A DNA stretch of 43,668 nucleotides from Thermodesulfovibrionales bacterium (GTDB taxonomy: Bacteria > Nitrospirota > Thermodesulfovibrionia > Thermodesulfovibrionales > SM23-35), in assembly GCA_020062205.1 (NCBI GenBank), contig JAGUWT010000284.1:1-43668 (forward strand), written 5' to 3'. The notes under the pieces were generated by a model. That model was not told the DNA's origin. It did no database searches and saw nothing but the letters and a program-made list of their open reading frames with translations. Each line of letters begins with the position of its first letter. Position 1 is the stretch's first letter. The translations under genes and the position numbers were made by a program. Below, one piece after another: positions 24,620 through 40,388 of the stretch.

Positions 24620-27451
24620 TTGAGCCTCTGTCTGTTGTTTATTATATTCTTATCGTTGCTTTTACCATGTGCAGCTGAAGAAATAAATGTCTCCCTCACT
24701 ATTCACGAAGCCTTAAGGGAAGGAGTCACCGGAATTGACAGGATACAGGAACCCGTAACAGTTGGAATTCCGTTTCCAAAGGGAATTCTTTCTGAAAAAA
24801 ATGGAGTGCCTCAATTAGCCCTTGAAGGGGTTAGAGAATATCAATTCCGCACCCTTGCTAAATGGCCTGATGGGTCTATGAAATGGGTACTTGTTGATTT
24901 TCAGACAAGTGTTAAATCTGGCGGCATCAATAATAATATTCATGTGATCAGGGGCAGCGGGAATTCCCCTGGCGAATTGGCAGAAGATAAAGGCGAGGTA
25001 ATCTCTATTAACACAGGAGTAATGAGTGTTCAAATAAAAAAGAAAGGTTTTAATCTCTTTGACAGCGTAATAATGGAAGGCAGAGGGATTATTGCAAAAG
25101 GAACTTCGAAGAGTATTGTTGCCATCGGGGAAGAAGGAAAGGAATATCTGGCGTTAAATGACTCAAAGACGAAGGTTTCGATTGAAGAAAACGGTCCTGT
25201 AAGAGCGGTAATAAAGGCAAAAGGAACTCATGTCGGAAATGGCAAAAGGATGATGGACTATACAGTGAGGATGCATTTTTACAAAGGCAAATCCATGGTA
25301 AGAGTGTTCTATACACTTCGTAATGCAAGTAAAGAACAGTTTGAACATGCTTATATACGTTCTCTCGATCTTGTCACTAAGTTATCATTCAACGGACCCT
25401 ACCAGATAGGTATAGCCGGGCATAATAGTGTTATAAAGGAACAGTTATCAGAAAAAGATGACAACGTGGTTTACTATCAGGCGGTTTCAGATTTTCCACA
25501 AGAGTATGCAGGTGATGCCTTTTATGATAAAGCACCCATTCCTCCGGATTACAAAAGAGAGAAAGAACGAGGATTTGTGCAGGAAGGGTACTGGATTAAA
25601 AAGGGTGAGAGAGAATTAGCAAGAGGGAAGAGAAAGGAATATCCTGATCTTGCGTTTCTCGATATCAGTGATAAAGACGGCAAAGGGGTAACCATCGGTA
25701 TCCGCTTTGCTGCAGGATGGTGGCCAAAAAGCCTGCGTGCCAGTGGTGCCGGTATAATTGAGGTTGGATTATGGCCCAAGGAAAACAAAGTAGGTTACTG
25801 GATAAGATATGGAAGCCATAATACATTTGAAGTAATGTATGAATTTCATGATAGAGCCAACGATCCTGCTGCCTCGATGAAGAAATTTCAATACCCGCTG
25901 GTGGCAAAGGCGTCAGTAGAGTGGTACAACCGAAATGTCAAGGGCATCTACCCCCTCTATAATTTTGTCTCTTTTGCTGAAGAGCAAAATTATATAAAAG
26001 GTAAAGGCTGGGATTATCTGGTCGGCTGGCGAAAACCAAAGATGAAGGTATGGCGTTACCATTATTGGGGGTGGGGAGGATTTTTAAATCAGCATGATTT
26101 TGCACGTATTGGACTGGTGAATTTTTCAAGGGAAACAGAAGATATTGTAAGAGCAGGTGAATACTTTTTAGGCGCTGAAGCGAGATTCAATTATAATGCC
26201 GACTGGGCTGTATACCACTCTGATGATTATGACCTTTCAGCTACCGAAAGGGGTAAATGGAGATTGCCTGACCCGGAAAAGAACAGAGAAAAGGCGCAAC
26301 TGGCAAAGGTTGTCTTTGAGTGGGAACATCCCCATTGGTATGGTATGCCTCTTTATTACTATATGACGGGGGATGAGCGGATCAAGGAGGCTATTCTGGA
26401 TTGGGCTGAGTATGTAAAAAAAACCCACACAAATATAACAATGGGTTCTTATCAGCGGGTCTGGGGATGGGGAATGTATACATTAGCTGCAATGTACGAT
26501 TTTACTGGTGATAAAACATTTATAGACATAGCCGATAAAAACTTCATCTGGCTTCTTGAAAACAGAGATGATTCACAGCATCGAGGAAGTACTATATTCA
26601 TCGATTGGAATCGAGGCTATATAGCAGGTGGCCCTGGAAGCGGATGGGGAAAAGAGCATGGACTTAAGCCGGGTCTCATGACAGGCTATGTACTTTTTGA
26701 TGGATTATATAACTATTATCTCTATATGGATGAAAGTAATCCACTTAAGAGAAGGGTAGCCGATGTATTAGAGGGCCTTTCGGAGTTTATGTACAGAGAG
26801 CCCTATGTCGAAGGTCGAAAGGGAGGGCACTGGGCTTTCTGGCTTCCTTATTCCTATAATCTTGAAAATAAGTCAAAGTCAGAGCATCAATACCGTCTTA
26901 TACTTCAGGCATTCTATGTCAATTTAGCCGATTATCTATTCAATGGAGGAGATAGATGGTTAGAAAGAATAGATAAGACTATAAGAATGGCTGGATGGGA
27001 CGAAAGCGGAATCTGGGATCATTTCGGTTTTATTGACCATCCTGGACTGCAATCCATGTTATATCTTCAATTACATCCCAGAACTGATATACTCCCTCCA
27101 GAGCCCGTTAAAGACCTTTCTGTAAGAGTAAATGGCGGTCATGTTATCTTAAGCTGGACTGCACCGGCTGATGCAGTGCGTTATCAGATTAAGTTCTCAA
27201 CAAAGAAACTTGTGGAATCCCTTGAGTTCGATCCAGATAAAAGGATATATAAATACAACCCTGCAGAATATGCCAACTGGTGGGCAGGAGAAAATATATT
27301 AGATGAGATCAATCCAGGAACGTCGGGAACAAAACAACAACATATCATAAAAAATCTGAAGCCCGGACATCATTATATTGCGATCAGGAGTTGGGATGCC
27401 TCAAACAACCGAAGCAGAATTTCCAATCTGGCAGAAGTTGAGATTAAGTAA
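24620..27451 (+). CDS. large secreted protein (N-terminal beta-rich region, central toroid-like region, C-terminal Fn3-like domain); possible glycan lyase/hydrolase
   Basis: TTG start after gggggtg. Signal peptide MSLCLLFIIFLSLLLPCAAEE. The N-terminal VTVGIPFPKG..WPDGSMKWVLVDF reminds me of YetA / exo-rhamnogalacturonan-lyase-like proteins. The C-terminal PEPVKDLSVRVNGGHVILSWTAPADAVRYQIKFS is Fn3-like. Confidence 0.55.
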   Translation: MSLCLLFIIFLSLLLPCAAEEINVSLTIHEALREGVTGIDRIQEPVTVGIPFPKGILSEKNGVPQLALEGVREYQFRTLAKWPDGSMKWVLVDFQTSVKSGGINNNIHVIRGSGNSPGELAEDKGEVISINTGVMSVQIKKKGFNLFDSVIMEGRGIIAKGTSKSIVAIGEEGKEYLALNDSKTKVSIEENGPVRAVIKAKGTHVGNGKRMMDYTVRMHFYKGKSMVRVFYTLRNASKEQFEHAYIRSLDLVTKLSFNGPYQIGIAGHNSVIKEQLSEKDDNVVYYQAVSDFPQEYAGDAFYDKAPIPPDYKREKERGFVQEGYWIKKGERELARGKRKEYPDLAFLDISDKDGKGVTIGIRFAAGWWPKSLRASGAGIIEVGLWPKENKVGYWIRYGSHNTFEVMYEFHDRANDPAASMKKFQYPLVAKASVEWYNRNVKGIYPLYNFVSFAEEQNYIKGKGWDYLVGWRKPKMKVWRYHYWGWGGFLNQHDFARIGLVNFSRETEDIVRAGEYFLGAEARFNYNADWAVYHSDDYDLSATERGKWRLPDPEKNREKAQLAKVVFEWEHPHWYGMPLYYYMTGDERIKEAILDWAEYVKKTHTNITMGSYQRVWGWGMYTLAAMYDFTGDKTFIDIADKNFIWLLENRDDSQHRGSTIFIDWNRGYIAGGPGSGWGKEHGLKPGLMTGYVLFDGLYNYYLYMDESNPLKRRVADVLEGLSEFMYREPYVEGRKGGHWAFWLPYSYNLENKSKSEHQYRLILQAFYVNLADYLFNGGDRWLERIDKTIRMAGWDESGIWDHFGFIDHPGLQSMLYLQLHPRTDILPPEPVKDLSVRVNGGHVILSWTAPADAVRYQIKFSTKKLVESLEFDPDKRIYKYNPAEYANWWAGENILDEINPGTSGTKQQHIIKNLKPGHHYIAIRSWDASNNRSRISNLAEVEIK

Positions 27452-27727
27452 ACCACCACACCTTTACAGGTGTGACTCTACCCAATACTGGCTTCGCCAG
27501 CAAATCATTCCATTCATCCCCGTCTTCACAGACAGGGCTTTCTTGTGTGGTGGTAAATCATTCAAGCGCAACCTTGCGGACGATGGTAATCGCCCAGCGC
27601 TTTCTGGATCCCAAACACAAACAGAAACGCCCTCCTGAGGGATAGAGGAGCAAAGATATTCCCATTAATCAGGTAGGTGGATATTTTGTGTCGGTTTTAC
27701 AGTTGACTGATTAGATAATAATGCGCG

Positions 27728-29017
27728 GTGAGAGAACAATCAGTGAATCAAAAGAAAATAGAAATTAAGGCAGTAGAAAATAGAAAGGACAATTTCAATA
27801 TTGGAAGATTGACCATGCTATTTTTATTCACTTTATTGATCATCTACGGGACTCTATACCCTTTCAGTGGTTGGCAGCAGCCTGATGGCAATATATGGAA
27901 TTTACTGGTACCAAAATGGCCCCGCCATATTTCCCGTACTGACTTAACCACAAATTTTCTGGTCTATATGCCCCTTGGTTTGTTTATCGCCAAATCTCTA
28001 AATATACGTTTAAGCTCCCTTTCAAGGATATTACTAACCACCATTCTGGGAACTGTATTCAGTTTTTCACTTGAATGTTTACAAGTGTTTCTTCCCAGCA
28101 GGGCATCATCCATTTTCGACGTTCTTTTAAATGGAGGTGGTACTTTTGCAGGTGCCACGTTTGCAGAAATCTTAGGAGATCGAACTGCTATGGGAAGAAA
28201 ATTAATATCATTGCGGCAGGAGTTGTTTTTACCTGGTCGTCTAAATGACCTTGGCCTTGTCATATTAGTTTTTTGGGCGCTGTCCCAATTAATTCCGCTG
28301 GTTCCCTCTCTCGATATAGGCAATTTGAAATACGGGCTTAAACCATTATGGAATACCCTTCATAATCTGAAGAGCTTTAATCTATATCAGGCGTTAGTAT
28401 ATACATTTAACATATTTGGCCTCGGTGTTGTCGCCTTTTTGATAGCAAAAGATAAAAATCATATGACTACTATATTTGCTACCTTTGTTACCACGGTGTT
28501 TCTTTTCAAGGTTCCGATTGTTGGACGACAACTATCTATGGAAGCAGTATCTGGGCTTGCCTGTGGCCTGGTTTTATTAATCTCTTTACGCTATATACCA
28601 AATCCGGTTTTGGTAGTTATGGCCGCAGTGGCTATCTTTGCGGCATTTGTCATCAATGAAGTGTATCCAGCTACAGCTTCTTTATCGTGTCTCCACTCAT
28701 TCAACTGGATTCCCTTTCGGAGGCAAATGACAAATTTAATGGGCATAATAAGTATCATGGAAGGGCTCTGGCCATTCGCATTGCTTGCTTACCTGACAAT
28801 GTTAATGCGCCAGTGTACACTCCTTAGCGCAATCCTTGCTGGATTGCCGCTGTTCATTCTTGTCTTTGTGATGGAATGGGTACAGCAGGGCATACCCGGC
28901 CGTTATCCTGATATTACCGCTGTCCTACTCGCAGTTATTGGATGGACTACGCCGCGGTTATTTATAGGCATTCCTATTGAGAAAATTCGTAGTGGCAGTT
29001 TACAGCCACTCAAATAA
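27728..29017 (+). CDS. VanZ-like domain polytopic membrane protein
   Basis: Motifs LLIIYGTLYPF and FSLECLQVFLPSRASSIFDVLLNGGGTFAGA (VanZ signature), followed by about 8 more hydrophobic helices. The start is uncertain (GTG 27728 or ATG 27815). Confidence 0.7.
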   Translation: MREQSVNQKKIEIKAVENRKDNFNIGRLTMLFLFTLLIIYGTLYPFSGWQQPDGNIWNLLVPKWPRHISRTDLTTNFLVYMPLGLFIAKSLNIRLSSLSRILLTTILGTVFSFSLECLQVFLPSRASSIFDVLLNGGGTFAGATFAEILGDRTAMGRKLISLRQELFLPGRLNDLGLVILVFWALSQLIPLVPSLDIGNLKYGLKPLWNTLHNLKSFNLYQALVYTFNIFGLGVVAFLIAKDKNHMTTIFATFVTTVFLFKVPIVGRQLSMEAVSGLACGLVLLISLRYIPNPVLVVMAAVAIFAAFVINEVYPATASLSCLHSFNWIPFRRQMTNLMGIISIMEGLWPFALLAYLTMLMRQCTLLSAILAGLPLFILVFVMEWVQQGIPGRYPDITAVLLAVIGWTTPRLFIGIPIEKIRSGSLQPLK

Positions 29018-30269: not shown

Positions 30270-32216
30270 ATGTGTGGCATAGTCGGAATCATAAATACCG
30301 TTTTAACACCTGAAAGGTCTCTTTTAGAGAAGATGTGTAGGATAATGACCCACAGAGGGCCTGATGGGGAGGGGTGTTACATTGAAGGACCTATCGCTCT
30401 TGGACACAGGAGATTGAGCATTATAGACCTTGAGGGTGGAAAACAACCAATGAGTAATGAAGATGACACAGTGTGGATTACCTTCAATGGAGAAATATAT
30501 AACTTTCCCGATGTTCAAAGAGAACTTGAAAAAAAAGGACATCGATTTAAAACAAGAAGCGATACTGAAGTGATTATTCATGCATATGAAGAATATGGGA
30601 AAGAGTGCATAAAGTATTTCAGGGGGATGTTTGCATTCGGAATTTGGGATAGTAAAAAAAAGGAACTCTTTCTTGCACGTGACCGTCTTGGGAAGAAGCC
30701 TCTTTACTATTATGTTGATGACAGGAGTTTTATCTTTGCCTCAGAAATAAAGGCAATCCTTCAGGATGAATATATAAAAAGAGAACTTGATGTAAAGGCA
30801 CTGGCTGATTACTTTACCTATCATTACGTTCCGTTTCCTGAAACAATATTCAAAGGCATACATAAACTGCCACCAGGACATTTAATGACTGTTCGAATTG
30901 TTCAAGATGTTCGAGACGTTCAAGTCGTTTCGAACAAGTGTAATGATCGAACGAGCGAAGCGATCGAACATATCGAATTTACTATTCATCAATACTGGGA
31001 TATTGAATATAAACCGGACTATTCTCTATCAGAACAGGAGTGGGTAGAGGCATTAAAGGAAAAACTGAAAGAAGCAGTCAGGATCAGGCTTATCAGTGAT
31101 GTGCCACTTGGGGCGTTTCTCAGTGGAGGGATAGATTCAAGCACTGTTGTTGCATTCATGAGTATGGTTCAGAACACACCTGTCAAAACATTCTCAATAG
31201 GGTTCAAAGAAGAGGATTTCAGCGAAGTGAAATATGCACGGGAGGTTGCCAAGAGGTTTGGAACTGAACATCAGGAAATGGTGGTCGAGCCCGATGCTAT
31301 AGAGGTATTACCAAAGCTCGCATGGGAATTTGACGAACCTTTTGCAGATTCTTCAGCCATACCTACCTATTATGTATCTAAAATGGCGAGGAAGTATGTA
31401 ACCGTCATCCTTTCTGGTGATGGCGGTGATGAAACCTTTGCTGGCTATAGGAGGTATCTATGGGCAAGGGATATGCATAAATACGACTGGATACCTCTGC
31501 CTTTGAGGGCAATAGTATTCGGAATTCCTGCTGCACTACTCCCAGATGGTATGAGAGGCAAAGGTATGCTCAGGCACCTTTCAAACGGTCCCTTTGAGCG
31601 ATATGCAGGTCTTAATACCTTTGGAGAACTGAACTCCCTCAAAAATCTCTTGAGCACAGATGTTCTGAACGAAGTCCAAAAGAGACAAAATGGGAGGTTG
31701 CATGACTATGCCTTTCTCAAGAAGTATTATGACTTCTGTAAGCATGACGACTATCTCACAAAGATACAATACATGGACACAAAGACCTACCTTGCTGAGG
31801 ATATTCTAACCAAGGTAGATAGGGCAAGCATGCTCTGTAGTCTGGAGACCCGTGCTCCATTACTTGATCATGAGGTAATTGAACTTGTTGCCAGAATTCC
31901 ATCATCCATGAAGATAAAAGATGGTGAGACGAAATATATCCTCAAAAAGGCAATGGATGGAATCCTCCCTGATACGATTTTGTATAGAAAAAAAATGGGC
32001 TTTGGGGTGCCTCTTATATATTGGTTTAAGAAAGATTTAACACAATATGCACGTGAGGTTCTTCTTTCTCAGGAAACTAAACATCGAGGAATATTTAATC
32101 AGAGCTATATCAAGAATATTTTGGAGAGACATCAGAAAAAGGGAAGAGACCTGAGTGCTAAGATATGGGCACTTCTTTTTTTCGAACACTGGTGCAGGAA
32201 CTGGCTTGATACATAA
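30270..32216 (+). CDS. asnB: asparagine synthase (glutamine-hydrolysing) family amidotransferase, exosortase-locus type, with an in-frame repeat insertion
   Basis: MCGIVGII (Cys2 nucleophile), HRRLSIIDL, RDRLGKKPLYYY and the PP-loop GAFLSGGIDSSTV. The extra segment IVQDVRDVQVVSNKCNDRTSEAIEHIE follows PPGHLMTV. Confidence 0.9.
   Translation: MCGIVGIINTVLTPERSLLEKMCRIMTHRGPDGEGCYIEGPIALGHRRLSIIDLEGGKQPMSNEDDTVWITFNGEIYNFPDVQRELEKKGHRFKTRSDTEVIIHAYEEYGKECIKYFRGMFAFGIWDSKKKELFLARDRLGKKPLYYYVDDRSFIFASEIKAILQDEYIKRELDVKALADYFTYHYVPFPETIFKGIHKLPPGHLMTVRIVQDVRDVQVVSNKCNDRTSEAIEHIEFTIHQYWDIEYKPDYSLSEQEWVEALKEKLKEAVRIRLISDVPLGAFLSGGIDSSTVVAFMSMVQNTPVKTFSIGFKEEDFSEVKYAREVAKRFGTEHQEMVVEPDAIEVLPKLAWEFDEPFADSSAIPTYYVSKMARKYVTVILSGDGGDETFAGYRRYLWARDMHKYDWIPLPLRAIVFGIPAALLPDGMRGKGMLRHLSNGPFERYAGLNTFGELNSLKNLLSTDVLNEVQKRQNGRLHDYAFLKKYYDFCKHDDYLTKIQYMDTKTYLAEDILTKVDRASMLCSLETRAPLLDHEVIELVARIPSSMKIKDGETKYILKKAMDGILPDTILYRKKMGFGVPLIYWFKKDLTQYAREVLLSQETKHRGIFNQSYIKNILERHQKKGRDLSAKIWALLFFEHWCRNWLDT
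30891..30978. repeat. GTTCRA/TCGAAC 9-nt-periodic palindromic element, copy in the asnB coding sequence
   Basis: Units are gttcgaatt gttcaagat gttcgagac gttcaagtc gtttcgaac aagtgtaat gatcgaacg agcgaagcg atcgaacat atcgaat. That is ten 9-nt units, about 30 codons. Confidence 0.75.
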
Positions 32217-32254
32217 AGATGGCAACTAGTTTTGTCCCTTATAGAGAGCGGTTA

Positions 32255-32524
32255 TGAGGAGGATATAAATATTCCTGTCACAGTACGTGAGGCTCTAAGA
32301 AAGGTGTCAGTGGGATTGATAGGACCGAGGAGACGGTTACAGGTTGGTATAACCCTTTCCAAGGGGAATGCTTTATGAGAAAATGGGTATGCCACAATTA
32401 TCAGTTGATGGTATGAAAGACTATCAATTTCGCATGCTGAAGCAGGATGATGGTTCAGTAAAATGGGGATAAACATAATAACAGAGTAAGATTTCTAATC
32501 TCGCCGAGGTAGAGATTAAATAAA
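32255..32524 (+). pseudogene. internally deleted, decayed paralogue of the 943-aa secreted protein gene
   Basis: 32255-32472 aligns to codons ~20-95 of 24620..27451 (EEDINIPVTVREALR.., VGITLSKG.., DGMKDYQFRMLKQDDGSVKW). It contains two in-frame TGA stops and frameshifts. 32481-32524 aligns to the last 14 codons plus stop (aacagagtaagatttctaatctcgccgaggtagagattaaataa versus aaccgaagcagaatttccaatctggcagaagttgagattaagtaa). Confidence 0.85.
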
Positions 32525-32602
32525 AACAAAAATATCATTCCTTCAAAGGTGGGTAAATAGTTTGAATATCTATAATAGTTTTAAATTGGAGAAGAACTAA
32601 AT

Positions 32603-35600
32603 TTGAAAAGGGAACACGAAGCATCACGCACCCGTATAGAAAAAGTACTATCGAAAATCTGGGCTGAAGTCCTCGGTCTTGAGCGAATCCACGTTGAGGA
32701 TAATTTTTTTGAGTTAGGTGGTGATTCTATCAATGTCCTTCAGGTGATCGCTATAGCCAATCGTGAAGGCTTACAATTTACTCCGAAACAGTTTTTTCAA
32801 CATCCTACCATTGCTGAGCTAGCTACCGTAACGGTTCCACTTTCAACTTCATGTGCAGAACAGGGTATCGTCAAAGGCAGGATACCACTAACTCCTATTC
32901 AGCACTGGTTTTTTGAACAGGGAGTCCCAGAACCAGAGCAATGGACACAGTCTATATTGCTTGAAGTGCATCACCCTCTTAAAGTTTCTATATTGCAAGA
33001 AGCCATTCGACACTTGCTTGTTCATCACGATGCACTGCGTGTGCGCTTTACCCCAGGGGAGCTGGGTTGGGAACAGTTTTGCGTTGGTAACGAAGAATTA
33101 GTACCGTTTAACAGGTTAGATTTGTCAGGACTTTCAGGTGGAGAGTTAAAACATGTCATTGAGGCTGAAGCAGCAAAATTGCGTGCTGGTTTAAACATAT
33201 CAAAGGGACCACTTATGCAAGTAGCCCTCTTTGACCTTGGCACTTCCCAACCGAATCGACTACTTATAGTCATTCATCATTTAGTAGCGGACGGTGTTTC
33301 ATGGCGGATCTTGCTGGGGGATCTCCAGACAGCCTATATGCAACTCAGCCGTGGTGAATTAATAAAACTGCCTGCCAAGACGACCTCGTTAAAGCAGTGG
33401 GCAGAACGACTTGAGGCATATGCACAATCAATAGAGCTGCGACATGAGATGAAATACTGGCTTGCACAGCCATGGAGTCAAGCAGGATGTTTACCTGTGG
33501 ACTTTCCAGATGGTGACAATACCGAGGCTTTGGCTTGGGCTGTGTCGGTTTCGCTCACTGCTGAAGAGACAAAGGCTATTTTACAGGAGATTCCCAAGGT
33601 ATACCATGTCCGTGTCAACGATATCTTGATCACGGCGCTGGTGCAGGCCTTTGCACCATGGATCGGAAAGGATTGTCTTCTCATAGATCTAGAAGGTCAC
33701 GGTCGGGAGGCTATTTTCGATGATGTGGATCTGTCTCGGACGGTGGGGTGGTTTACCTCAATTTTTCCTGTGCTGCTGGATCTTAAGAATGCGTCAGGAC
33801 TCAGGAGTACCATGAAGTTGACACAGGAACAAATGAATCATATTCCGCATAAAGGTATTGACTATGGCATACTGCGCTACCTCAGCAGTGCTGAAAATGC
33901 TCGTCGACTTCAAAGTCTGCCTCAGGCCGAGGTTAGTTTTAACTACTTTGGACAATTCGATCAACTATTTTCAGGCACATCTATGTTTAAGCCAGCCTCT
34001 GAAACTATTACTCCTGTACAGTTAAAGGGTCTATTGCAAGAGTCATATGGGTTAAAGGGAACACGGAGGCATTTAATAGATATTAGTGGAAGCGTATTTA
34101 ATGGCAAGCTTTGGTTTAACTGGACGTATAGCAAGAACGTTCATCGCGAAACGACAATCCGTTACCTTGCTGAAGACTACGTGGCTGCACTCCGCTCGAT
34201 TATTAATAGCTATCAGTCTACCGAGGCCGAGTCTTACAAACCTTTCAACTCTCGGGGGACCTTCTTATGCAATGAAGAGTTTGATGCTAAAAATAAACAG
34301 CTCATTGAAGGCAGCGCTACAGGTGATAAGAGTTTGGAAAATGTTGAGGCTATTTTCCCGCTTTCCGCCATGCAGCGGGGGCTTTTATTTCACAGTCTTC
34401 AGAATCCCGAGTTGGGTATCTACATCGTGCAGGATTGTTACATGCTTTATGGTGACTTAAACATGCCGGCATTTAGGGAGGCTTGGATGCATGTATCAAA
34501 GCGACATACCGCCCTGCGGACTGTATTTATCCCAAAAGGGCACAAACAGCCACTTCAGGCCATTCACAAGGTAGTAAATTTATTAATCGAAGAACATGAT
34601 TGGCCTGATCTGGGAGCAACCGATCAGAAAGAGCAAATAGAGTCTTTCCTCAAGATGGACCGCGAAAAGGGCTTCGACCTTACAAAGAGTCCACCACTGC
34701 GTCTTGCCATAATCCGATTAACCAAAGACGTCTATCAATTTATTTTAAGTTTCCATCACGCATTACTTGATGCTTGGTCTGTGTCTTTACTAATCAGGGA
34801 AGTTTTTGACTTCTATCAGGCACTCTGTTATGGGAGTGAGTACAAAATGGATTCAAACCATCCCTATATGGATTATATTACATGGCTTCATCAGCAGGAT
34901 CTGTCCCAGGCTGAGGGTTTCTGGCGGCAGATACTGAAAGGGTTTACAGCACCGACACCTTTAGGAATGATTGCAGAGCGTAATGGTTTATCATGCCATG
35001 TTGATGGTTTTAGTGAAGGAGAAATTAAGTTATCTGCAGCCACTACGGCAGCGTTGCAGTCCTTTGCACAGCGTCATCATCTCACTCTTAATACCCTGAT
35101 TCAGGGTTCGTGGGCCCTGTTGCTAAGTCACTATAGTGGTGAGAAGGAAGTAGTCTTTGGGGTCGTTGTGTCTGGTCGTCCACCTGCTCTGGAAGGAGTC
35201 GAGTCCATGGTAGGACTATTTATCAATACCTTACCAGCACGGGTACAGATACATGACAAGGAGACACTATTTCTTTGGTTGAAGAAGCTTCAAAACCAGC
35301 AAGTTGAGATGAGACAGTATGAATATAGTCCTTTGGTAAAGGTAAAAGAGTGGAGTGAAATTCCAAGCGGTGTTCCTCTGTTCGAGAGTATATTGCTTTT
35401 CCAGAATTACCCGGTGGACGATATGTTAGTAGCGAGGCATGGAAACTTAAAGATAGAGAATGTACGAACAGTGGAAAGGACTAATTATCCACTTACCCTG
35501 GTAGCAATACCAGGTTCAGAATTAATATTGCGGCTCATGTACCATACCCCTCGTTTTAATGCTTCTACCATTGCCCAGATGCTTGACCATTTACAAACCT

Positions 35601-36472
35601 TGCTGGAGGGCATGCTTGCCAATCCACAGGCGCGACTTTCAGACATCCCGTTGTTAACCGCAGCACAACAGCGCCAACTCCTTGTTGAATGGAATAATAC
35701 CAAAACGGACTACCCCAGGGATGCAACTATCCCTGAACTGTTTGAGGCACAGGTAGAACAGACACCCGACACCGTAGCAGTTATATTTGGAGACCATCGA
35801 CTTACTTATCGGGATTTGAATCAGAGAGCAAACCAGCTATCGCACTACCTGAGGTACTTAGACGTTTCACCGGAAGTGCGGGTTGCTATTTGTATGGAAC
35901 GCTCCCTGGAAATGGTAATAGGACTTTTAGGCATACTCAAAGCAGGTGGTGCATACGTGCCTCTTGACCCCTTGTACCCTAAAGAAAGGCTATCGTTCAT
36001 GCTGGCAGATGCTCAGGTGCCAGTGTTGTTGACCCAAAAGCAGCTGATTCAGAGATTGCCAAAGCATATGGCTAGGGTAGTGTGTCTTGATGAAGAGTGG
36101 GGACATATAGCAGGAGAAAGCGACCAAAATCCACCCAGGAGAACTAAGGCGGAAAACCTAGCCTGTATAATTTATACTTCAGGTTCAACCGGCAAGCCAA
36201 AAGGAGTGGAAGTTCTCCACCGTGGTATTGTTCGTTTATTATTCGGCACGGATTACGTCAAGCTTGATGCGACACAGAGATTTTTGCATATGTCTGCAAT
36301 CACCTTTGATGCTTCTACCTTTGAGATTTGGGGAGCATTGCTTCATGGTGCCCAATGTGTTCTCTTGCCGGGAAGAATACCTAGTTTAGAAGAAATAGGC
36401 ATGGCGATACAAAAATATGGCATTACCACCCTCTGGTTAACAGCTGCACTATTCAACGTGATATATAGATGA
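32603..36472 (+). CDS. non-ribosomal peptide synthetase, N-terminal part (T-E-C and A-domain cores A1-A4), interrupted by a frameshift
   Basis: TTG start 11 nt after ggag. T domain: FFELGGDS (Ser codon 32726-32728). E domain: PIQHWFF, HHLVADGVSW (33275), LEGHGRE, RTVGWFTSIFP, FNYFGQ. C domain: SAMQRGLLF, HHALLDAWS (34754). A domain: LTYRDLN, LKAGGAYVPLDP, IIYTSGSTGKPKG (36173), FDAS. It ends at TGA 36470-36472 in the middle of the A domain. Confidence 0.9.
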   Translation: MKREHEASRTRIEKVLSKIWAEVLGLERIHVEDNFFELGGDSINVLQVIAIANREGLQFTPKQFFQHPTIAELATVTVPLSTSCAEQGIVKGRIPLTPIQHWFFEQGVPEPEQWTQSILLEVHHPLKVSILQEAIRHLLVHHDALRVRFTPGELGWEQFCVGNEELVPFNRLDLSGLSGGELKHVIEAEAAKLRAGLNISKGPLMQVALFDLGTSQPNRLLIVIHHLVADGVSWRILLGDLQTAYMQLSRGELIKLPAKTTSLKQWAERLEAYAQSIELRHEMKYWLAQPWSQAGCLPVDFPDGDNTEALAWAVSVSLTAEETKAILQEIPKVYHVRVNDILITALVQAFAPWIGKDCLLIDLEGHGREAIFDDVDLSRTVGWFTSIFPVLLDLKNASGLRSTMKLTQEQMNHIPHKGIDYGILRYLSSAENARRLQSLPQAEVSFNYFGQFDQLFSGTSMFKPASETITPVQLKGLLQESYGLKGTRRHLIDISGSVFNGKLWFNWTYSKNVHRETTIRYLAEDYVAALRSIINSYQSTEAESYKPFNSRGTFLCNEEFDAKNKQLIEGSATGDKSLENVEAIFPLSAMQRGLLFHSLQNPELGIYIVQDCYMLYGDLNMPAFREAWMHVSKRHTALRTVFIPKGHKQPLQAIHKVVNLLIEEHDWPDLGATDQKEQIESFLKMDREKGFDLTKSPPLRLAIIRLTKDVYQFILSFHHALLDAWSVSLLIREVFDFYQALCYGSEYKMDSNHPYMDYITWLHQQDLSQAEGFWRQILKGFTAPTPLGMIAERNGLSCHVDGFSEGEIKLSAATTAALQSFAQRHHLTLNTLIQGSWALLLSHYSGEKEVVFGVVVSGRPPALEGVESMVGLFINTLPARVQIHDKETLFLWLKKLQNQQVEMRQYEYSPLVKVKEWSEIPSGVPLFESILLFQNYPVDDMLVARHGNLKIENVRTVERTNYPLTLVAIPGSELILRLMYHTPRFNASTIAQMLDHLQTLLEGMLANPQARLSDIPLLTAAQQRQLLVEWNNTKTDYPRDATIPELFEAQVEQTPDTVAVIFGDHRLTYRDLNQRANQLSHYLRYLDVSPEVRVAICMERSLEMVIGLLGILKAGGAYVPLDPLYPKERLSFMLADAQVPVLLTQKQLIQRLPKHMARVVCLDEEWGHIAGESDQNPPRRTKAENLACIIYTSGSTGKPKGVEVLHRGIVRLLFGTDYVKLDATQRFLHMSAITFDASTFEIWGALLHGAQCVLLPGRIPSLEEIGMAIQKYGITTLWLTAALFNVIYR
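32624..32827 (+). other. NRPS domain: carrier (T/PCP) domain 1
   Basis: IWAEVLGLERIHVEDNFFELGGDSINVLQV. Confidence 0.85.
32882..34207 (+). other. NRPS domain: epimerisation (E) domain
   Basis: All seven E-type cores were recognised by eye: PIQxWF, HHxxxDGVSW, DILITA, EGHGRE, RTVGWFT, GIDYG and FNYxGQ. Confidence 0.8.
34343..35647 (+). other. NRPS domain: condensation (C) domain, presumably DCL type because it follows E
   Basis: Motifs LSAMQRGLLFH, RHTALRTVF, HHALLDAWS, GLFINTLP and NYPLTLVA. Confidence 0.8.
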
Positions 36473-37211
36473 GGCACCACGGATATTAGATGGCATCCGG
36501 CAGTTGCTTGTTGGTGGAGATGCGCTTTCAGTTTCGCATGTTCTCAAAGCCCTTGAGGTTTTACACACCATACAGATCATCAACGGCTATGGTCCCACTG
36601 AGGGCACGACATTTACCTGTTGTTATACTATTCCTCGTCAACTTGATAAAACCGCGCTATCAATCCCTATAGGGCGTCCCATTTCCAATACACAAGTCTA
36701 CCTGCTTAATTCATATCTGCAGCCGGTGCCCGTTGGGGTTCCAGGTGAAATTTACATTGGAGGAGATGGTCTTGCCCGAGGCTATCTCAATCAGCCCGAA
36801 TTAACAGCCGAAAAGTTTATCCCCAATCTGTTCAATGATGACCCGGGTGCACACCTGTACAAGACAGGGGATCTGGCACGTTACCTGCCAGACGGTAATA
36901 TTGAGTTCATCGGTCGTCTTGACCATCAGGTGAAGATCCGTGGCTTCCGGATCGAGCTGGGAGAGATTGAGTCAGTGTTAGGACAACATCCCGCTGTTCG
37001 TCAAGTAGCGGTAATTACCCGTGAAGATGTACCCGGCAGCAAAAGCCTAGTAGCCTACATTGTCCCTGTTCGCGAAGGAGTTATCTCGGCACGGGAGATG
37101 AGGCATTTCTTGAAAGAAAAGCTACCAGACTATATGATTCCCTCTGCTTTTGTATTTTTGGAAGCTTTGCCGTTAACGCCGAATAACAAAATAAACCGCA
37201 AAGAGTTACCA
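35720..37211 (+). other. NRPS domain: adenylation (A) domain, spanning the frameshift at about 36461-36469
   Basis: Cores A1-A10 are present across the two frames. The hand-derived specificity code is D A F W L G G T F K. Confidence 0.8.
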
Positions 37212-38243
37212 CCGCCAAGCCATAAGCCCAGTAACCGAAAGGAGTGTTTTGTGGCACCACAGGATGCTATTGAGGTTCATCTGATGAGGATTTGGGAGGA
37301 TATTTTAGACATACACAAGATAGGGATAAGGAATAACTTTTTCGAATTAGGCGGCAACTCCCTTCAGGCCGTTCGTCTGATAGATAAAATTGAACATTTT
37401 TTTGGCAAGAGGCTGCCTTTGGATATCCTCTGGCACAATGGATCAACCATAGAAGATATGGCTGTTGCTCTTCGAAGGGAGGAAGGCTCCACTCTCTGGT
37501 CCTCTGCTATACCGATCAAGCCCGATGGTTCACGAAGATCATTATTCTGCACTCATATCGCTGGAGGGTACTTTTTTTATTACGATAAATTAGCCAGCTA
37601 CCTAAACCAAAAACAACCTCTTTATGCAATACCACCTCAGTATGTTGATGGTAAACATCATCCTCACACAACGATTGAAACGATGGCATCACACTGCATC
37701 CAACTCATGAGACAGGTTCAACCAGAAGGTCCATATTCTATCGCCGGCTTCTGCAGTGGTGGTGTGATAGCTTTCGAAATGGCCCAGCAGCTTCATGCAC
37801 AGGGTGAAGAAATGGCATTGTTAGCATTATTAGACAGTCTGGCTCCGGGCTTTCATTTGCGTCTTTTTATTCGAGTATTGTTAGATTTTCTCCGGTTAAA
37901 GAATGTGAGGCTTGTGCAGGAACGTTTGTACCACATGTTTTTGCGGGCATTTGGTATGCCGCATCTTCGTGTTTTCCAAAAGGCTAGCGAAGCCCACCGT
38001 TGGGCTTTGTGGAGCTATAAAGCCAAGCCTTACTCGGGGCGTATTACCCTGTTTCGGCCAAGTAAATACAAGTATTCCAGTGATCCCCTGTTGGGCTGGG
38101 GTAAGCTCGCAATGGAGGGAGTGGATGTTCATGTGATTCCTGGTAAGCACGGAGAAATGGTTAAAGAACCTATTGTACAGGTCATGGCCAAACAACTCGA
38201 AACCCATCTTGCTGGGATAGATGCTAATGAAAAGACAGTTTAA
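36504..38243 (+). CDS. non-ribosomal peptide synthetase, C-terminal part (A-domain cores A5-A10, T, TE)
   Basis: The frame is open from 36462 (YIDEAPRILDGIRQLLVGGDAL). A domain: NGYGPTE, GEIYIGGDGLARGY, YKTGDLARY, GRLDHQVKIRGFRIELGEIE, LPDYMIPS, NNKINRKEL. T domain: FFELGGNS (Ser 37359-37361). TE domain: GFCSGG (Ser 37755-37757) and GKHG (His 38148-38150). Confidence 0.9.
   Translation: MLVGGDALSVSHVLKALEVLHTIQIINGYGPTEGTTFTCCYTIPRQLDKTALSIPIGRPISNTQVYLLNSYLQPVPVGVPGEIYIGGDGLARGYLNQPELTAEKFIPNLFNDDPGAHLYKTGDLARYLPDGNIEFIGRLDHQVKIRGFRIELGEIESVLGQHPAVRQVAVITREDVPGSKSLVAYIVPVREGVISAREMRHFLKEKLPDYMIPSAFVFLEALPLTPNNKINRKELPPPSHKPSNRKECFVAPQDAIEVHLMRIWEDILDIHKIGIRNNFFELGGNSLQAVRLIDKIEHFFGKRLPLDILWHNGSTIEDMAVALRREEGSTLWSSAIPIKPDGSRRSLFCTHIAGGYFFYYDKLASYLNQKQPLYAIPPQYVDGKHHPHTTIETMASHCIQLMRQVQPEGPYSIAGFCSGGVIAFEMAQQLHAQGEEMALLALLDSLAPGFHLRLFIRVLLDFLRLKNVRLVQERLYHMFLRAFGMPHLRVFQKASEAHRWALWSYKAKPYSGRITLFRPSKYKYSSDPLLGWGKLAMEGVDVHVIPGKHGEMVKEPIVQVMAKQLETHLAGIDANEKTV
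37257..37469 (+). other. NRPS domain: carrier (T/PCP) domain 2
   Basis: IWEDILDIHKIGIRNNFFELGGNSLQAVRL. Confidence 0.85.
37530..38198 (+). other. NRPS domain: type I thioesterase (TE)
   Basis: LFCTHIAGGYFFYYDKLA, GFCSGG (GxSxG) and the C-terminal GKHGEM. Confidence 0.8.
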
Positions 38244-39027
38244 AAATACCTTACAGGATACACCTGAGTTGCAATGGCTGACTCCACCAGAGCAACTAAT
38301 CCTTGCTAATGACGAGGTTCACATCTGGCGGTTATACATAAATTCAGAATTCTCTAATATCCAATATCTTAAAGGGATACTTTCTAACGAAGAACGTACT
38401 AAGGCTGAAGGATTCTATTTTAAAATAGATCAATGGCGGTATATTATAGTTCGAGCCATACTGAGAATAATCCTTGCTAAATACCTGTGTCTTGAACCTG
38501 AACAAATTCGATTCAACTATGGAACACATGACAAGCCTGCCTTATCCGATGTGCTGAAGACACATAGAGTCAATTTCAATTTGTCCCACTCTCAAAATAT
38601 AGCTTTATATGTAATAGTTTGTGATCGAGAGGTTGGAATAGACATTGAAAATATTCGTACCGATTTGGATGTCTTGGGAATTGCAGAACATTGGTTTTCT
38701 CAGCGAGAAGCTGCTGTTATCAGGGAATTATCCTCAGATGCACAGAAGAAGGCATTTTTTACGATTTGGACTCGCAAGGAGGCGTATCTAAAGGCAAAAG
38801 GAGTGGGATTAGCCCAACTGAATGGGTTTGAAGTTTTATTACATCTTGGAGAGCTTACTATTTTGATGAGCAGTGAAGAAGATTCCCACGAACCATCACT
38901 CTGGAAACTGGAAGACCTGGCAGTTGACCCTGATTATGCAGCCACTGTTGCTGTTGAGGGTAAAACATGGACCCCAAAATTCTGGCAATGGAGCCCAATT
39001 TATAAACTCGAAAGGTTCTTCTTTTAA
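38221..39027 (+). CDS. 4'-phosphopantetheinyl transferase, Sfp type
   Basis: ATG 38221 overlaps the NRPS 3' end by 23 nt. Motifs HDKPAL, NFNLSHSQNIA, VGIDIE and FFTIWTRKEAYLKAKG. Confidence 0.9.
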   Translation: MLMKRQFKNTLQDTPELQWLTPPEQLILANDEVHIWRLYINSEFSNIQYLKGILSNEERTKAEGFYFKIDQWRYIIVRAILRIILAKYLCLEPEQIRFNYGTHDKPALSDVLKTHRVNFNLSHSQNIALYVIVCDREVGIDIENIRTDLDVLGIAEHWFSQREAAVIRELSSDAQKKAFFTIWTRKEAYLKAKGVGLAQLNGFEVLLHLGELTILMSSEEDSHEPSLWKLEDLAVDPDYAATVAVEGKTWTPKFWQWSPIYKLERFFF

Positions 39028-39060
39028 CAGTAATCACTACTGTCCGCTTAAAATAGGGAC

Positions 39061-39168
39061 TGTTATATCCAGACTATGTTAGAAATACATCAAAAAAGGG
39101 GAAGAGACCTGAGTGCCCCTTTGTGGGCATTGCTCTTTTTTGAATACTGGTGCAGGAATTGGATGTAG
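39061..39168 (+). pseudogene. remnant of the last 35 codons of an AsnB paralogue
   Basis: It translates to CYIQTMLEIHQKRGRDLSAPLWALLFFEYWCRNWM-stop. The C-terminus of the 30270..32216 product is SYIKNILERHQKKGRDLSAKIWALLFFEHWCRNWLDT. 24 of 35 residues are identical. A TAA lies immediately upstream and there is no N-terminal part. Confidence 0.85.
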
Positions 39169-39170
39169 GT

Positions 39171-40388
39171 GTGAAAATCCTCGTTATTACAACCATCTTT
39201 CCTAATTCAAAACAGCACACCCTCGGCATCTTTGTGAGAGAAAGGATGTTTCAGGTTGCAAAACACTGTGAGATAAAGGTCGTAGCTCCTGTTCCATGGT
39301 TTCCTTTTGTGCGGTATATCAAGAAGGGTTATAGACCAAAGGTTCCTTTTTTGGAGATTCAGGATGGGATAGAGGTATACCATCCGCGCTTCTTCAATAT
39401 CCCGAAACTTTGTAAATTTCTTGATGGAATCTTTTTCTTTATATCATCTATACTTACAACAATAAACTTAAGAAAAAGCTTTAAGTTTGATATTATTGAT
39501 GCACACTTTATTTATCCTGAGGGATTTGGGGCGGTACTTCTTGGCAAGGTAATAAGAAGGCCTGTCATTATTACAGAAAGGGGAACTATACGAAAACTAT
39601 TAAAGTATCCCCTTATTAAACCTCAGATTCAATATGCCTTGGGCAAGGCCGTAAAAGTCTTTACGGTCTGCAATGATCTGAAAAAGGCTGTTACAGAGCT
39701 TGGCATCCCTGAAAAAAGGGTAGTAGTCGTCCCGAATGGAGTTGATATTGAAAAGTTTAAGCCTGTTGAGAAGCAAAAGGCCCGGAAAGAACTTGGGCTC
39801 TTAGAATATAAAAAGATTATCATCTCAGCGGGCGGACTTGTTGAAAGAAAGGGATTTCATAGGATTATCTCTGTCCTCCCTGAGATTAAAAAAACCATAC
39901 CAGAAATAATGTATGTGATCGTTGGAGGAGCCTCTGTTGAAGGTAACTATGAGCCGGTATTACGCAAGATGGTCAAGGATTTAAATCTTGAAAATGATGT
40001 CTTATTCGCAGGACCTCAGCCCCATGATGTTCTCTACAAATGGCTCAGTGCATCAGATATCTTCTGCCTCGCAACAAGCAATGAGGGATGGGCAAATGTT
40101 TTTTTAGAGGCAATGGCCTGTGGACTTCCTGTTGTTACAACACGTGTTGGCGGTAATGAAGAGGTGGTTATATCTGAGGATTATGGATTACTTTTCAATT
40201 TAGAAGACAGACAAGAGATGATTGATATGATATTGAAAGCCTTGAAGAAAGACTGGGGTAGAGAAAAGATTGTCCACTATGCACGATCAAATACATGGGA
40301 CGAGCGGATTCATGATTTGCTCAATAATATCAAAGATATCATTAATCCTGATAAATCCTATGTTTCAGCTAAGGTGTTTACGCCATAA
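39171..40388 (+). CDS. glycosyltransferase family 4 (GT-B)
   Basis: The likely start is GTG 39171 (MKILVITTIFP), directly after the remnant's TAG. The ORF track start at 39150 lies inside the remnant. Motifs NGVDIEKF and TSNEGWANVFLEAMACGLPVVTTRVGGNEEVV. Confidence 0.85.
   Translation: MKILVITTIFPNSKQHTLGIFVRERMFQVAKHCEIKVVAPVPWFPFVRYIKKGYRPKVPFLEIQDGIEVYHPRFFNIPKLCKFLDGIFFFISSILTTINLRKSFKFDIIDAHFIYPEGFGAVLLGKVIRRPVIITERGTIRKLLKYPLIKPQIQYALGKAVKVFTVCNDLKKAVTELGIPEKRVVVVPNGVDIEKFKPVEKQKARKELGLLEYKKIIISAGGLVERKGFHRIISVLPEIKKTIPEIMYVIVGGASVEGNYEPVLRKMVKDLNLENDVLFAGPQPHDVLYKWLSASDIFCLATSNEGWANVFLEAMACGLPVVTTRVGGNEEVVISEDYGLLFNLEDRQEMIDMILKALKKDWGREKIVHYARSNTWDERIHDLLNNIKDIINPDKSYVSAKVFTP

Follow-up and report, generated by a model that had tools for sequence, protein, structure and literature searches.

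Gene content of the exopolysaccharide locus

The window analyzed here, i.e., the whole stretch of 43,668 nucleotides, represents the entire contig C45 of the genome and contains an XrtA/PEP-CTERM exopolysaccharide (EPS) locus. Its gene content comprises an exosortase, an EpsI-like gene and a PEP O-ligase-like Wzy_C protein, as well as stp2- and stp3-like GT4 glycosyltransferases, an XrtA-type amidotransferase, an APS kinase, and a CapK-like ligase. The following features are of relevance for this study:

24620-27451, plus strand: intact gene for a 943-aa secreted PcRGLX/YetA-like protein, copy 1 (PF21345, PF19501)
30270-32216, plus strand: AsnB-1, intact XrtA/PEP-CTERM-type amidotransferase gene, its product ending in ...NWLDT before the stop (TIGR03108, 720 bits)
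32219-32258, plus strand: probable start ATG 32219 and decayed signal-peptide region (tblastn, junction alignment)
32259-32466, plus strand: N-terminal fragment, codons 20-89, RIFT-barrel domain (alignments, corrected translation)
32464-32524, plus strand: C-terminal fragment, W925 to the stop, reading WDKHNNR.KISNLAEVEIK and stop (alignments, frame reading)
32475-32478, no strand: ATAA target site of a DDE_5 insertion sequence in the strain of run X1 (insertion sequence ends, empty site)
32525-32587, no strand: spacer of 63 nt from the stop of the remnant to the first NRPS-derived base (no match in the window)
32588-38243, plus strand: 5'-truncated NRPS fragment, T-E-C-A-T-TE (Pfam, NCBIfam)
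38221-39027, plus strand: Sfp/HetI-type phosphopantetheinyl transferase (PPTase) gene, the right-hand end of the block (PF01648, NF042922)
39064-39168, plus strand: 3'-terminal relic of a second AsnB gene, YIQTMLEIHQKRGRDLSAPLWALLFFEYWCRNWM and stop (alignment to AsnB-1)
39171-40388, plus strand: GT4 glycosyltransferase gene (Pfam, locus comparison)

The intact 943-aa protein matched PF21345 with 62.1 bits and PF19501 with 32.8 bits, both above the respective cut-offs, and thus features the PcRGLX-like N-terminal RIFT barrel and the central beta-sandwich. At least 120 homologues were found, all of them originating from metagenomes and located in EPS loci, the closest ones sharing 57-72% identity. 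A sequence search of the PDB with this protein gave no match. Its domain composition indicates a polysaccharide-lyase-like protein with a predicted enzymatic role, and the gene is therefore referred to as lyase-like below. The lyase-like gene is separated from the stp3-like GT4 gene by a gene for a 429-aa VanZ-like-domain protein (27728-29017); no such gene was present at the equivalent place in the related loci inspected.

A remnant of a second lyase-like gene

The spacer between AsnB-1 and the NRPS fragment (32217-32602) was used as a blastn query against the whole window. Two matches to the lyase-like gene were obtained, namely of 32259-32467 to 24677-24887 (68.7% identity in 214 columns, including 8 gap positions, E 2e-24) and of 32477-32524 to 27404-27452 (75.5% over 49 columns, E 3e-4). 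Beyond these two and the self-match, all hits of the spacer within the window had E values of at least 0.34, and the 63 nt at 32525-32587 gave no match in the window at all. Pairwise alignment scored far above shuffled controls, with Smith-Waterman scores of 70 for the N-terminal piece (13.8 +/- 1.7, maximum 23, in 200 shuffles) and of 23 for the C-terminal piece (11.7 +/- 1.5, maximum 19, in shuffles). The similarity of this stretch to the N-terminal region and to the last codons and stop of the gene at 24620-27451, on which the first-pass annotation had based the idea of a decayed copy, is thus real.

In a six-frame search of the 1.84-Mb genome (303 contigs), the 943-aa protein matched the intact gene and the remnant only, and the remnant was collinear at the protein level with 25 or more members of the family. 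Furthermore, the remnant and both of its junctions were recovered in independent Logan contigs from the groundwater runs X1, X2, X3, and X8, so that it is no assembly chimera. A chance similarity or an assembly artefact has the low identity (69%) as its sole point in favour and is of negligible probability, considering the E value of the N-terminal match, a score approximately 33 standard deviations over the shuffles, the protein-level collinearity, and the occurrence of the same remnant in independent assemblies of four other runs.

The remnant extends from a probable start ATG at 32219, located 2 nt past the stop of AsnB-1, to a stop codon at 32522-32524. In tblastn searches with the homologues, protein similarity was detected from 32226 onward, i.e., from the signal-peptide h-region (homologue residues 13-16). 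The signal-peptide region is frameshifted and approximately 33 nt shorter than that of the homologues. Codons 20-89 occupy three frames (-1 near 32297, +1 at 32344, and +1 near 32351) and lack one codon near 32437, and the C-terminal fragment has a G added at the joint plus a -1 shift near 32485, giving about six small indels in the remnant. The translation corrected for these indels contains no nonsense codon, and the TGA and TAA codons observed in the remnant are accordingly due to the frameshifts. Of the frameshifts and premature TGA codons reported by the first-pass annotation, the former could be confirmed, but independent nonsense mutations could not.

The two pieces abut directly at a tryptophan. 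The short stretch between them, previously regarded as a separate junction, is not foreign but reads W-D-K-H-N-N-R one frame over, corresponding to W925-D-A-S-N-N-R of the intact protein, with the shared Trp codon located at 32464-32466. The internal loss, estimated before at about 2.5 kb, can be refined to 2,505 nt or 835 of the 943 codons (24887-27391 of the intact gene). Its ends are the invariant Trp codons W89 and W925, each followed by a G in the intact gene, giving TGGG at both sites (AAATGGGTA and AGTTGGGAT, respectively). We infer that slippage or illegitimate recombination between these two TGGG sites probably produced the deletion, with the present sequence of the intact gene serving as a proxy for the microhomology and the joint also carrying the one extra G.

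The corrected peptide matched PF19501 with 21.3 bits (cut-off 22.1, E 2.4e-4), and the part corresponding to PF21345 is deleted; as a protein, the remnant hence fails the two-domain test of the family (PF19501 plus PF21345), although its sequence identifies it as a descendant of the PcRGLX/YetA-like family. The substitutions H29R, P45T, T78M, and W82Q affect columns that are invariant in 27 homologues. Collinear homology, a destroyed reading frame, and relaxed constraint, as expected for a pseudogene, were all observed for this stretch.

Position of the remnant compared to related loci

Two gene orders were distinguished among the related loci. In type A (loci L003, L004, L085, L090, L092, and the window), the order is WzyC, GT4, (APS kinase), lyase-like gene, ..., stp3-like GT4, AsnB, GT4, and CapK. 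In type B (L080/L084, L081, L087, and L091), it is WzyC, GT4, AsnB, lyase-like gene, stp3-like GT4, GT4, CapK, and exosortase, with an intact lyase-like homologue directly behind AsnB or overlapping it by 4 nt. The remnant occupies exactly this type-B slot. The counterpart of the GT4 gene at 39171 follows directly behind AsnB in type A and behind the stp3-like GT4 in type B.

The junction from the AsnB stop to the ATG resembles that of L087 and L091 (GATAC(A/G)TAA...AGATG), a likeness that spans only about 20 nt. Similarly, the end of AsnB-1 (...NWLDT and stop) is type-B-like (DT, DS, or DV), the type-A AsnB proteins being two codons shorter. A mosaic origin of AsnB-1 was considered and rejected, the gene being type-A-like over its whole length except for the last two codons.

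An intact second copy of the lyase-like gene at this position, as sought following the first-pass annotation, was not found. No trace of a lyase-like gene was detected after AsnB in the type-A loci L003, L085, and L090. Two close copies did not occur in any of 26 homologous metagenome loci, nor in any of the approximately 14 close ones. No lyase-like gene was present in 40 genomes of relatives from the genus, family, and order, and among 400 genomes of the phylum, none had a match at close identity and five featured distant partial matches only (33-35% identity). In eight groundwater and soil runs, the deleted form of the remnant was the only allele seen.

Divergence of the remnant from the intact gene

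Comparison of the remnant with the intact gene over 265 aligned sites revealed 18, 15, and 49 differences at codon positions 1, 2, and 3 (88, 89, and 88 sites, respectively; 69% identity). For the intact gene and its orthologue in L003, the corresponding values were 14, 8, and 50 (third positions 50/90), and for L004 they were 9, 6, and 38 (third positions 38/90). With 49/88 third positions changed compared to 38/90 for L004 and 50/90 for L003, the remnant does not behave as a recent tandem duplicate. The assumption that the remnant goes back to a second, formerly complete member of this gene family that was gutted internally is supported by our results, but a recent copy of the neighbouring gene is contradicted by a nucleotide difference of 31%.

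In the comparison with the remnant, saturation is nearly reached at third positions but not at positions 1 and 2. Had the remnant been neutral since the split, an approximately threefold higher divergence would, as an estimate, be expected at positions 1 and 2. Since the divergence is concentrated at third positions, purifying selection most probably kept the second gene working during the larger part of its separate history. An excess of about 6% at positions 1 and 2, together with the indels, is consistent with a shorter period of neutral decay. From these values, the lost gene appears to be a long-diverged paralogue or xenologue and no fresh duplicate, the distance between the remnant and the intact gene being comparable to that of orthologues in separate metagenomic lineages.

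The motifs EDINIP... and ...SNLAEVEIK plus stop of the remnant are those of the clade of the intact gene (type A). In a maximum-likelihood placement based on 267 nt, the remnant formed a long branch with no stable position (support 15-31%). A sister relation to the intact gene was not rejected (AU p = 0.43), leaving room for an old in situ duplication. Placement within the type-B clade was weakly rejected (AU p = 0.043). Since the remnant groups with type-A and not with the sampled type-B genes, none of the sampled loci is a plausible donor.

The NRPS fragment, the PPTase gene, and a second AsnB tail

Downstream of the remnant, NRPS homology starts at 32588, and this start aligns to internal residues approximately 980-1220 of multimodule NRPSs. 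The GC content of the NRPS fragment (44-49%) exceeds that of the flanks (37-42%). Its best homologues share about 50% identity, and no relative above 53% identity was found in the GTDB representatives or in a set of 5.8 billion proteins; a search for a lyase-like gene beside a related NRPS therefore yielded no donor context. In the window, a 1-nt frameshift within ATATATA (36461-36467) interrupts the fragment in its A domain. Base 36464 is absent from run X1, where the sequence accordingly reads ...LFNVIIDEAPRILDGIRQLLVGGDALS... and forms one ORF of approximately 1,880 aa. The frameshift is therefore either strain-specific or an assembly error, as judged from these sequences, and the NRPS fragment, its frame being unbroken in X1, cannot be regarded as dead in all lineages.

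To the right of the PPTase gene, no partner sequence could be recognised for the joint at 39027-39063. This joint is followed by the dead tail of a second AsnB gene, 39064-39149 matching 32106-32191 with 77.9% identity over 86 nt (E 1.5e-15; alignment score 48 compared to 11.0 +/- 1.5 in shuffles). The tail of AsnB is thus doubled in the window (32106-32216 and 39064-39168). The second tail, YIQTMLEIHQKRGRDLSAPLWALLFFEYWCRNWM, reads indel-free to a stop at 39166-39168, located 2 nt before GTG 39171 as in L003, and abuts the glycosyltransferase gene in type-A fashion. Hence, the NRPS fragment and the PPTase gene are bracketed by the lyase-like remnant on the left and by the AsnB tail on the right. 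The GT4 gene was listed as starting from GTG 39150; GTG 39171 (MKILVITT..., as in L003) is the more likely start, and the first seven codons of the listed ORF represent the end of the dead AsnB tail in another frame.

Comparison of the block between strains

Logan metagenome contigs were used for strain comparison and read as differences from the window. Contigs of run X1 differed from the window by 0.5-2% over 32163-39063, a region comprising the remnant, the NRPS fragment, and the PPTase gene (the block). At its left edge, a 550-nt contig of X1 joins a divergent AsnB end (about 19% different; 22 differences over 116 nt and a replacement of a further 85 nt) to the remnant (7 differences in 316 nt). 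At the right edge, a 3,653-nt contig leads from the block into the AsnB tail and the GT4 gene, which are 6-20% different (9 substitutions in 46 nt of the tail plus a 1-nt deletion at 39092; 6% for GT4). The WzyC, first lyase-like, VanZ-like, stp3-like GT4, and AsnB-1 genes of X1 differ by 7-18% and have similar depth. Divergence from X1, 19% on the left, drops to about 2% around 32163 and increases once more around 39064-39075; together with the doubled AsnB tail, this profile could stem from one-sided import, but equally from a later homologous exchange of the block.

The 3' part of AsnB-1 (31962-32162) was about 19% different in X1 and X3; X4 has the allele of the window. This part of AsnB, just left of the common block, is most probably a recombination breakpoint region. 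In X1, 42 letters stand in place of 4 letters between 39167 and 39172.

These values suggest that the block has a common history distinct from, and much more recent than, that of its flanks. Because the block is about 99% identical and the flanks differ by 6-19%, at least one lineage received the remnant already dead. It may also have been broken already on arrival in the genome studied here. The claim that the second gene once lay at this place and was destroyed here is therefore only partly tenable: the slot fits, but loss in place cannot be asserted for a block that is about 99% identical elsewhere. Either the block is mobile or its flanks are hypervariable. Two 12-kb backbone pieces of the genome, L111 (C215) and L112 (C289), were essentially absent from X1 at an identity of at least 80%; both were also essentially absent from X3, which likewise carries the block at about 99% identity. 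The block either resides in a different organism there or contig C45 was mis-binned.

Small differences were also noted within the remnant. None of the four other runs covering 32344 (X1, X2, X3, and X8) has the extra G of the window, which is either strain-specific or an assembly error; single-base indels in this metagenome-assembled genome consequently call for caution. In X1, a 6-nt insertion (CCCTTA) was found behind 32235. These indel polymorphisms, along with the insertion sequence present in one strain (see below), point to neutral decay that is still continuing.

An insertion sequence close to the deletion joint

In X1, an insertion sequence is located at 32475-32478, within 10 nt of the joint, with ATAA on both sides and an 11-nt inverted repeat (CCCTACAACGA). 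Its transposase belongs to Pfam DDE_5 (E 7.6e-46), and we take the element to be IS701-like. An X1 contig links the end of the element to the window from 32481 onward, and both the window and X2 possess the exact empty site at 32475-32478. The genome studied here has its own copy of about 1.5 kb on contig C144 (L108, positions 1-1502), which shares the same end at 1502, encodes a frameshifted transposase, and abuts ATAATA. The latter suggests a target preference of the element.

The position of a high-copy DDE_5 element less than 10 nt from the joint in X1, along with the copy on C144, could imply that it caused the 2.5-kb deletion, either by adjacent deletion or by recombination between two copies. 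However, the ATAA flanks and the exact empty site are those of a simple insertion that took place later, when the joint was already present, the ATAATA beside the C144 copy points to target choice, and an adjacent deletion would have left the element in place without a target duplication. An involvement of the element in the deletion is thus extremely improbable, and this candidate was discarded on account of the target duplication and the empty site. As neither the window nor X2 has the element at this site, the insertion postdates the deletion and is not its cause.

The word depth of the insertion sequence was 630 in X1 and 336 in X3, compared to approximately 6 for the locus, and the element therefore has a very high copy number in those groundwater communities.

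Possible function of the remnant

The stretch represents the sole non-coding DNA from AsnB to the NRPS start and contains a weak sigma-70-like site (32510-32538) as well as a GGAG located about 11 nt before TTG 32603. Accordingly, co-option as a promoter or leader of the NRPS gene, or as a small protein or RNA, was considered, and is very unlikely. Promoter-like sites were at chance level (1 found compared to 1.8 expected from shuffles), and the lone Rfam match, RAGATH-17, was far under its threshold (27.7 bits compared to 102.3; E 0.24). Moreover, the homologous frames keep no ORF of 20 or more codons, and sister strains tolerate indels and the insertion of the DDE_5 element in this stretch.

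Proposed history of the locus

Based on the above, we consider it probable, with good confidence, that 32219-32524 is the pseudogene of a second PcRGLX/YetA-like gene, carried as a passenger beside an imported NRPS fragment. The locus would once have harboured a second, divergent arrangement running from a lyase-like gene to AsnB, the middle of which would later have been replaced by the foreign NRPS segment. This arrangement would have originated from a tandem duplication or, with higher probability, from the one-sided homologous import of DNA from a related locus with the AsnB-lyase order. One-sided import is favoured because no sampled relative has two copies and because the divergence is lineage-deep. 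The second lyase-like gene itself was gutted by a single deletion of 2,505 nt, followed by small indels. Remnant, NRPS fragment, and PPTase gene would now be exchanged as a unit among lineages with divergent EPS genes.

Alternatively, and in line with the first-pass annotation, the remnant could stem from an in-lineage tandem duplication that comprised either the neighbouring gene alone or the block from the lyase-like over the VanZ-like and GT4 genes to AsnB, and could have decayed in place. The lyase-like stub and the AsnB tail stand in the order expected of a second tandem block, the sister relation to the intact gene was compatible with the AU test, and the C-terminal SNLAEVEIK plus stop is identical in both. 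Such an origin nevertheless appears unlikely. The third-position divergence equals that to L003 and exceeds that to L004, so that both copies would need to have been functional for about the time since the lineages split, which is difficult to reconcile with the lack of two copies in the approximately 14 close loci and of any trace after AsnB in L003, L085, and L090. In addition, a block of about 99% identity between flanks differing by 6-19% means that the decay did not take place in situ in at least one lineage.

Beyond the preferred reading of a pseudogene carried beside the imported NRPS fragment, it could be speculated, though this is doubtful, that the window represents a half-way stage of a gene-order change by block doubling and loss, with the stubs acting as homology arms that shuttle the NRPS and PPTase cassette among lineages differing by 6-19% in their EPS genes, one of which has the NRPS frame unbroken. 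If true, the window would be an intermediate between the orders AsnB-lyase-GT4-GT4 and lyase-...-GT4-AsnB-GT4 in XrtA exopolysaccharide loci.

Relation to known systems and relevance

Bacterial pseudogene relics are known to arise from deletional bias. The remnant resembles such cases in concerning a redundant gene with one large deletion followed by small indels, in its strain polymorphism, and in its tolerance of an insertion sequence. In contrast to them, it rides in a block that is nearly unchanged across lineages and is thus hitch-hiking rather than simply fading. Capsule and O-antigen loci are mosaic, and remnants of genes occur at their recombination joints. With these loci, the locus studied here has in common that gene orders vary, that divergence changes abruptly, and that dead ends of genes lie at the boundaries of blocks; the differences are that an XrtA/PEP-CTERM locus of an uncultured groundwater bacterium is concerned and that an NRPS fragment is the cargo. 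Regarding the PcRGLX/YetA-like (exo-rhamnogalacturonan-lyase-like) proteins, the intact gene passes both Pfam cut-offs, whereas the remnant has lost everything past residue 89 except for the last 19 residues.

In type VI secretion system (T6SS) effector-immunity arrays of Vibrio cholerae, the displacement of modules is reported to leave orphan stubs, which is attributed to homology-facilitated illegitimate recombination (PMC5361080), a process described in PMC3240628. The incoming homologous module is anchored on one side by a conserved gene end, and the displaced resident persists as a stub downstream; in the window, the doubled AsnB tail would correspond to this anchor. Unlike in these arrays, the cargo here is a dead lyase-like gene and an NRPS fragment and includes no working module.

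As a pseudogene, the stub is ordinary genome decay and matters little, except that it records a rearrangement of the locus; its value is that of a historical marker. Together with the AsnB tail, it would mark a former second, divergent arrangement from a lyase-like gene to AsnB in an exopolysaccharide locus. The NRPS/PPTase segment accordingly appears to be a scar-bounded insertion that is not integral to the pathway and probably moves as a unit between related loci, such loci being rearranged by block exchange. With respect to an NRPS decorating the polysaccharide, this argues against an ancestral, integrated role, yet the NRPS of the sister lineage is free of the frameshift. For annotation purposes, the stretch should be marked as a pseudogene instead of being left as an empty spacer of 386 nt.

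Finally, distant lyase-like family members (24-44% identity) were observed to share their contig with a second copy, either partial or complete, in L097 (5308-5397), L099 (12707-13906, minus strand), and L102 (6513-6788), and doubling of the lyase-like gene may thus be recurrent in EPS loci.
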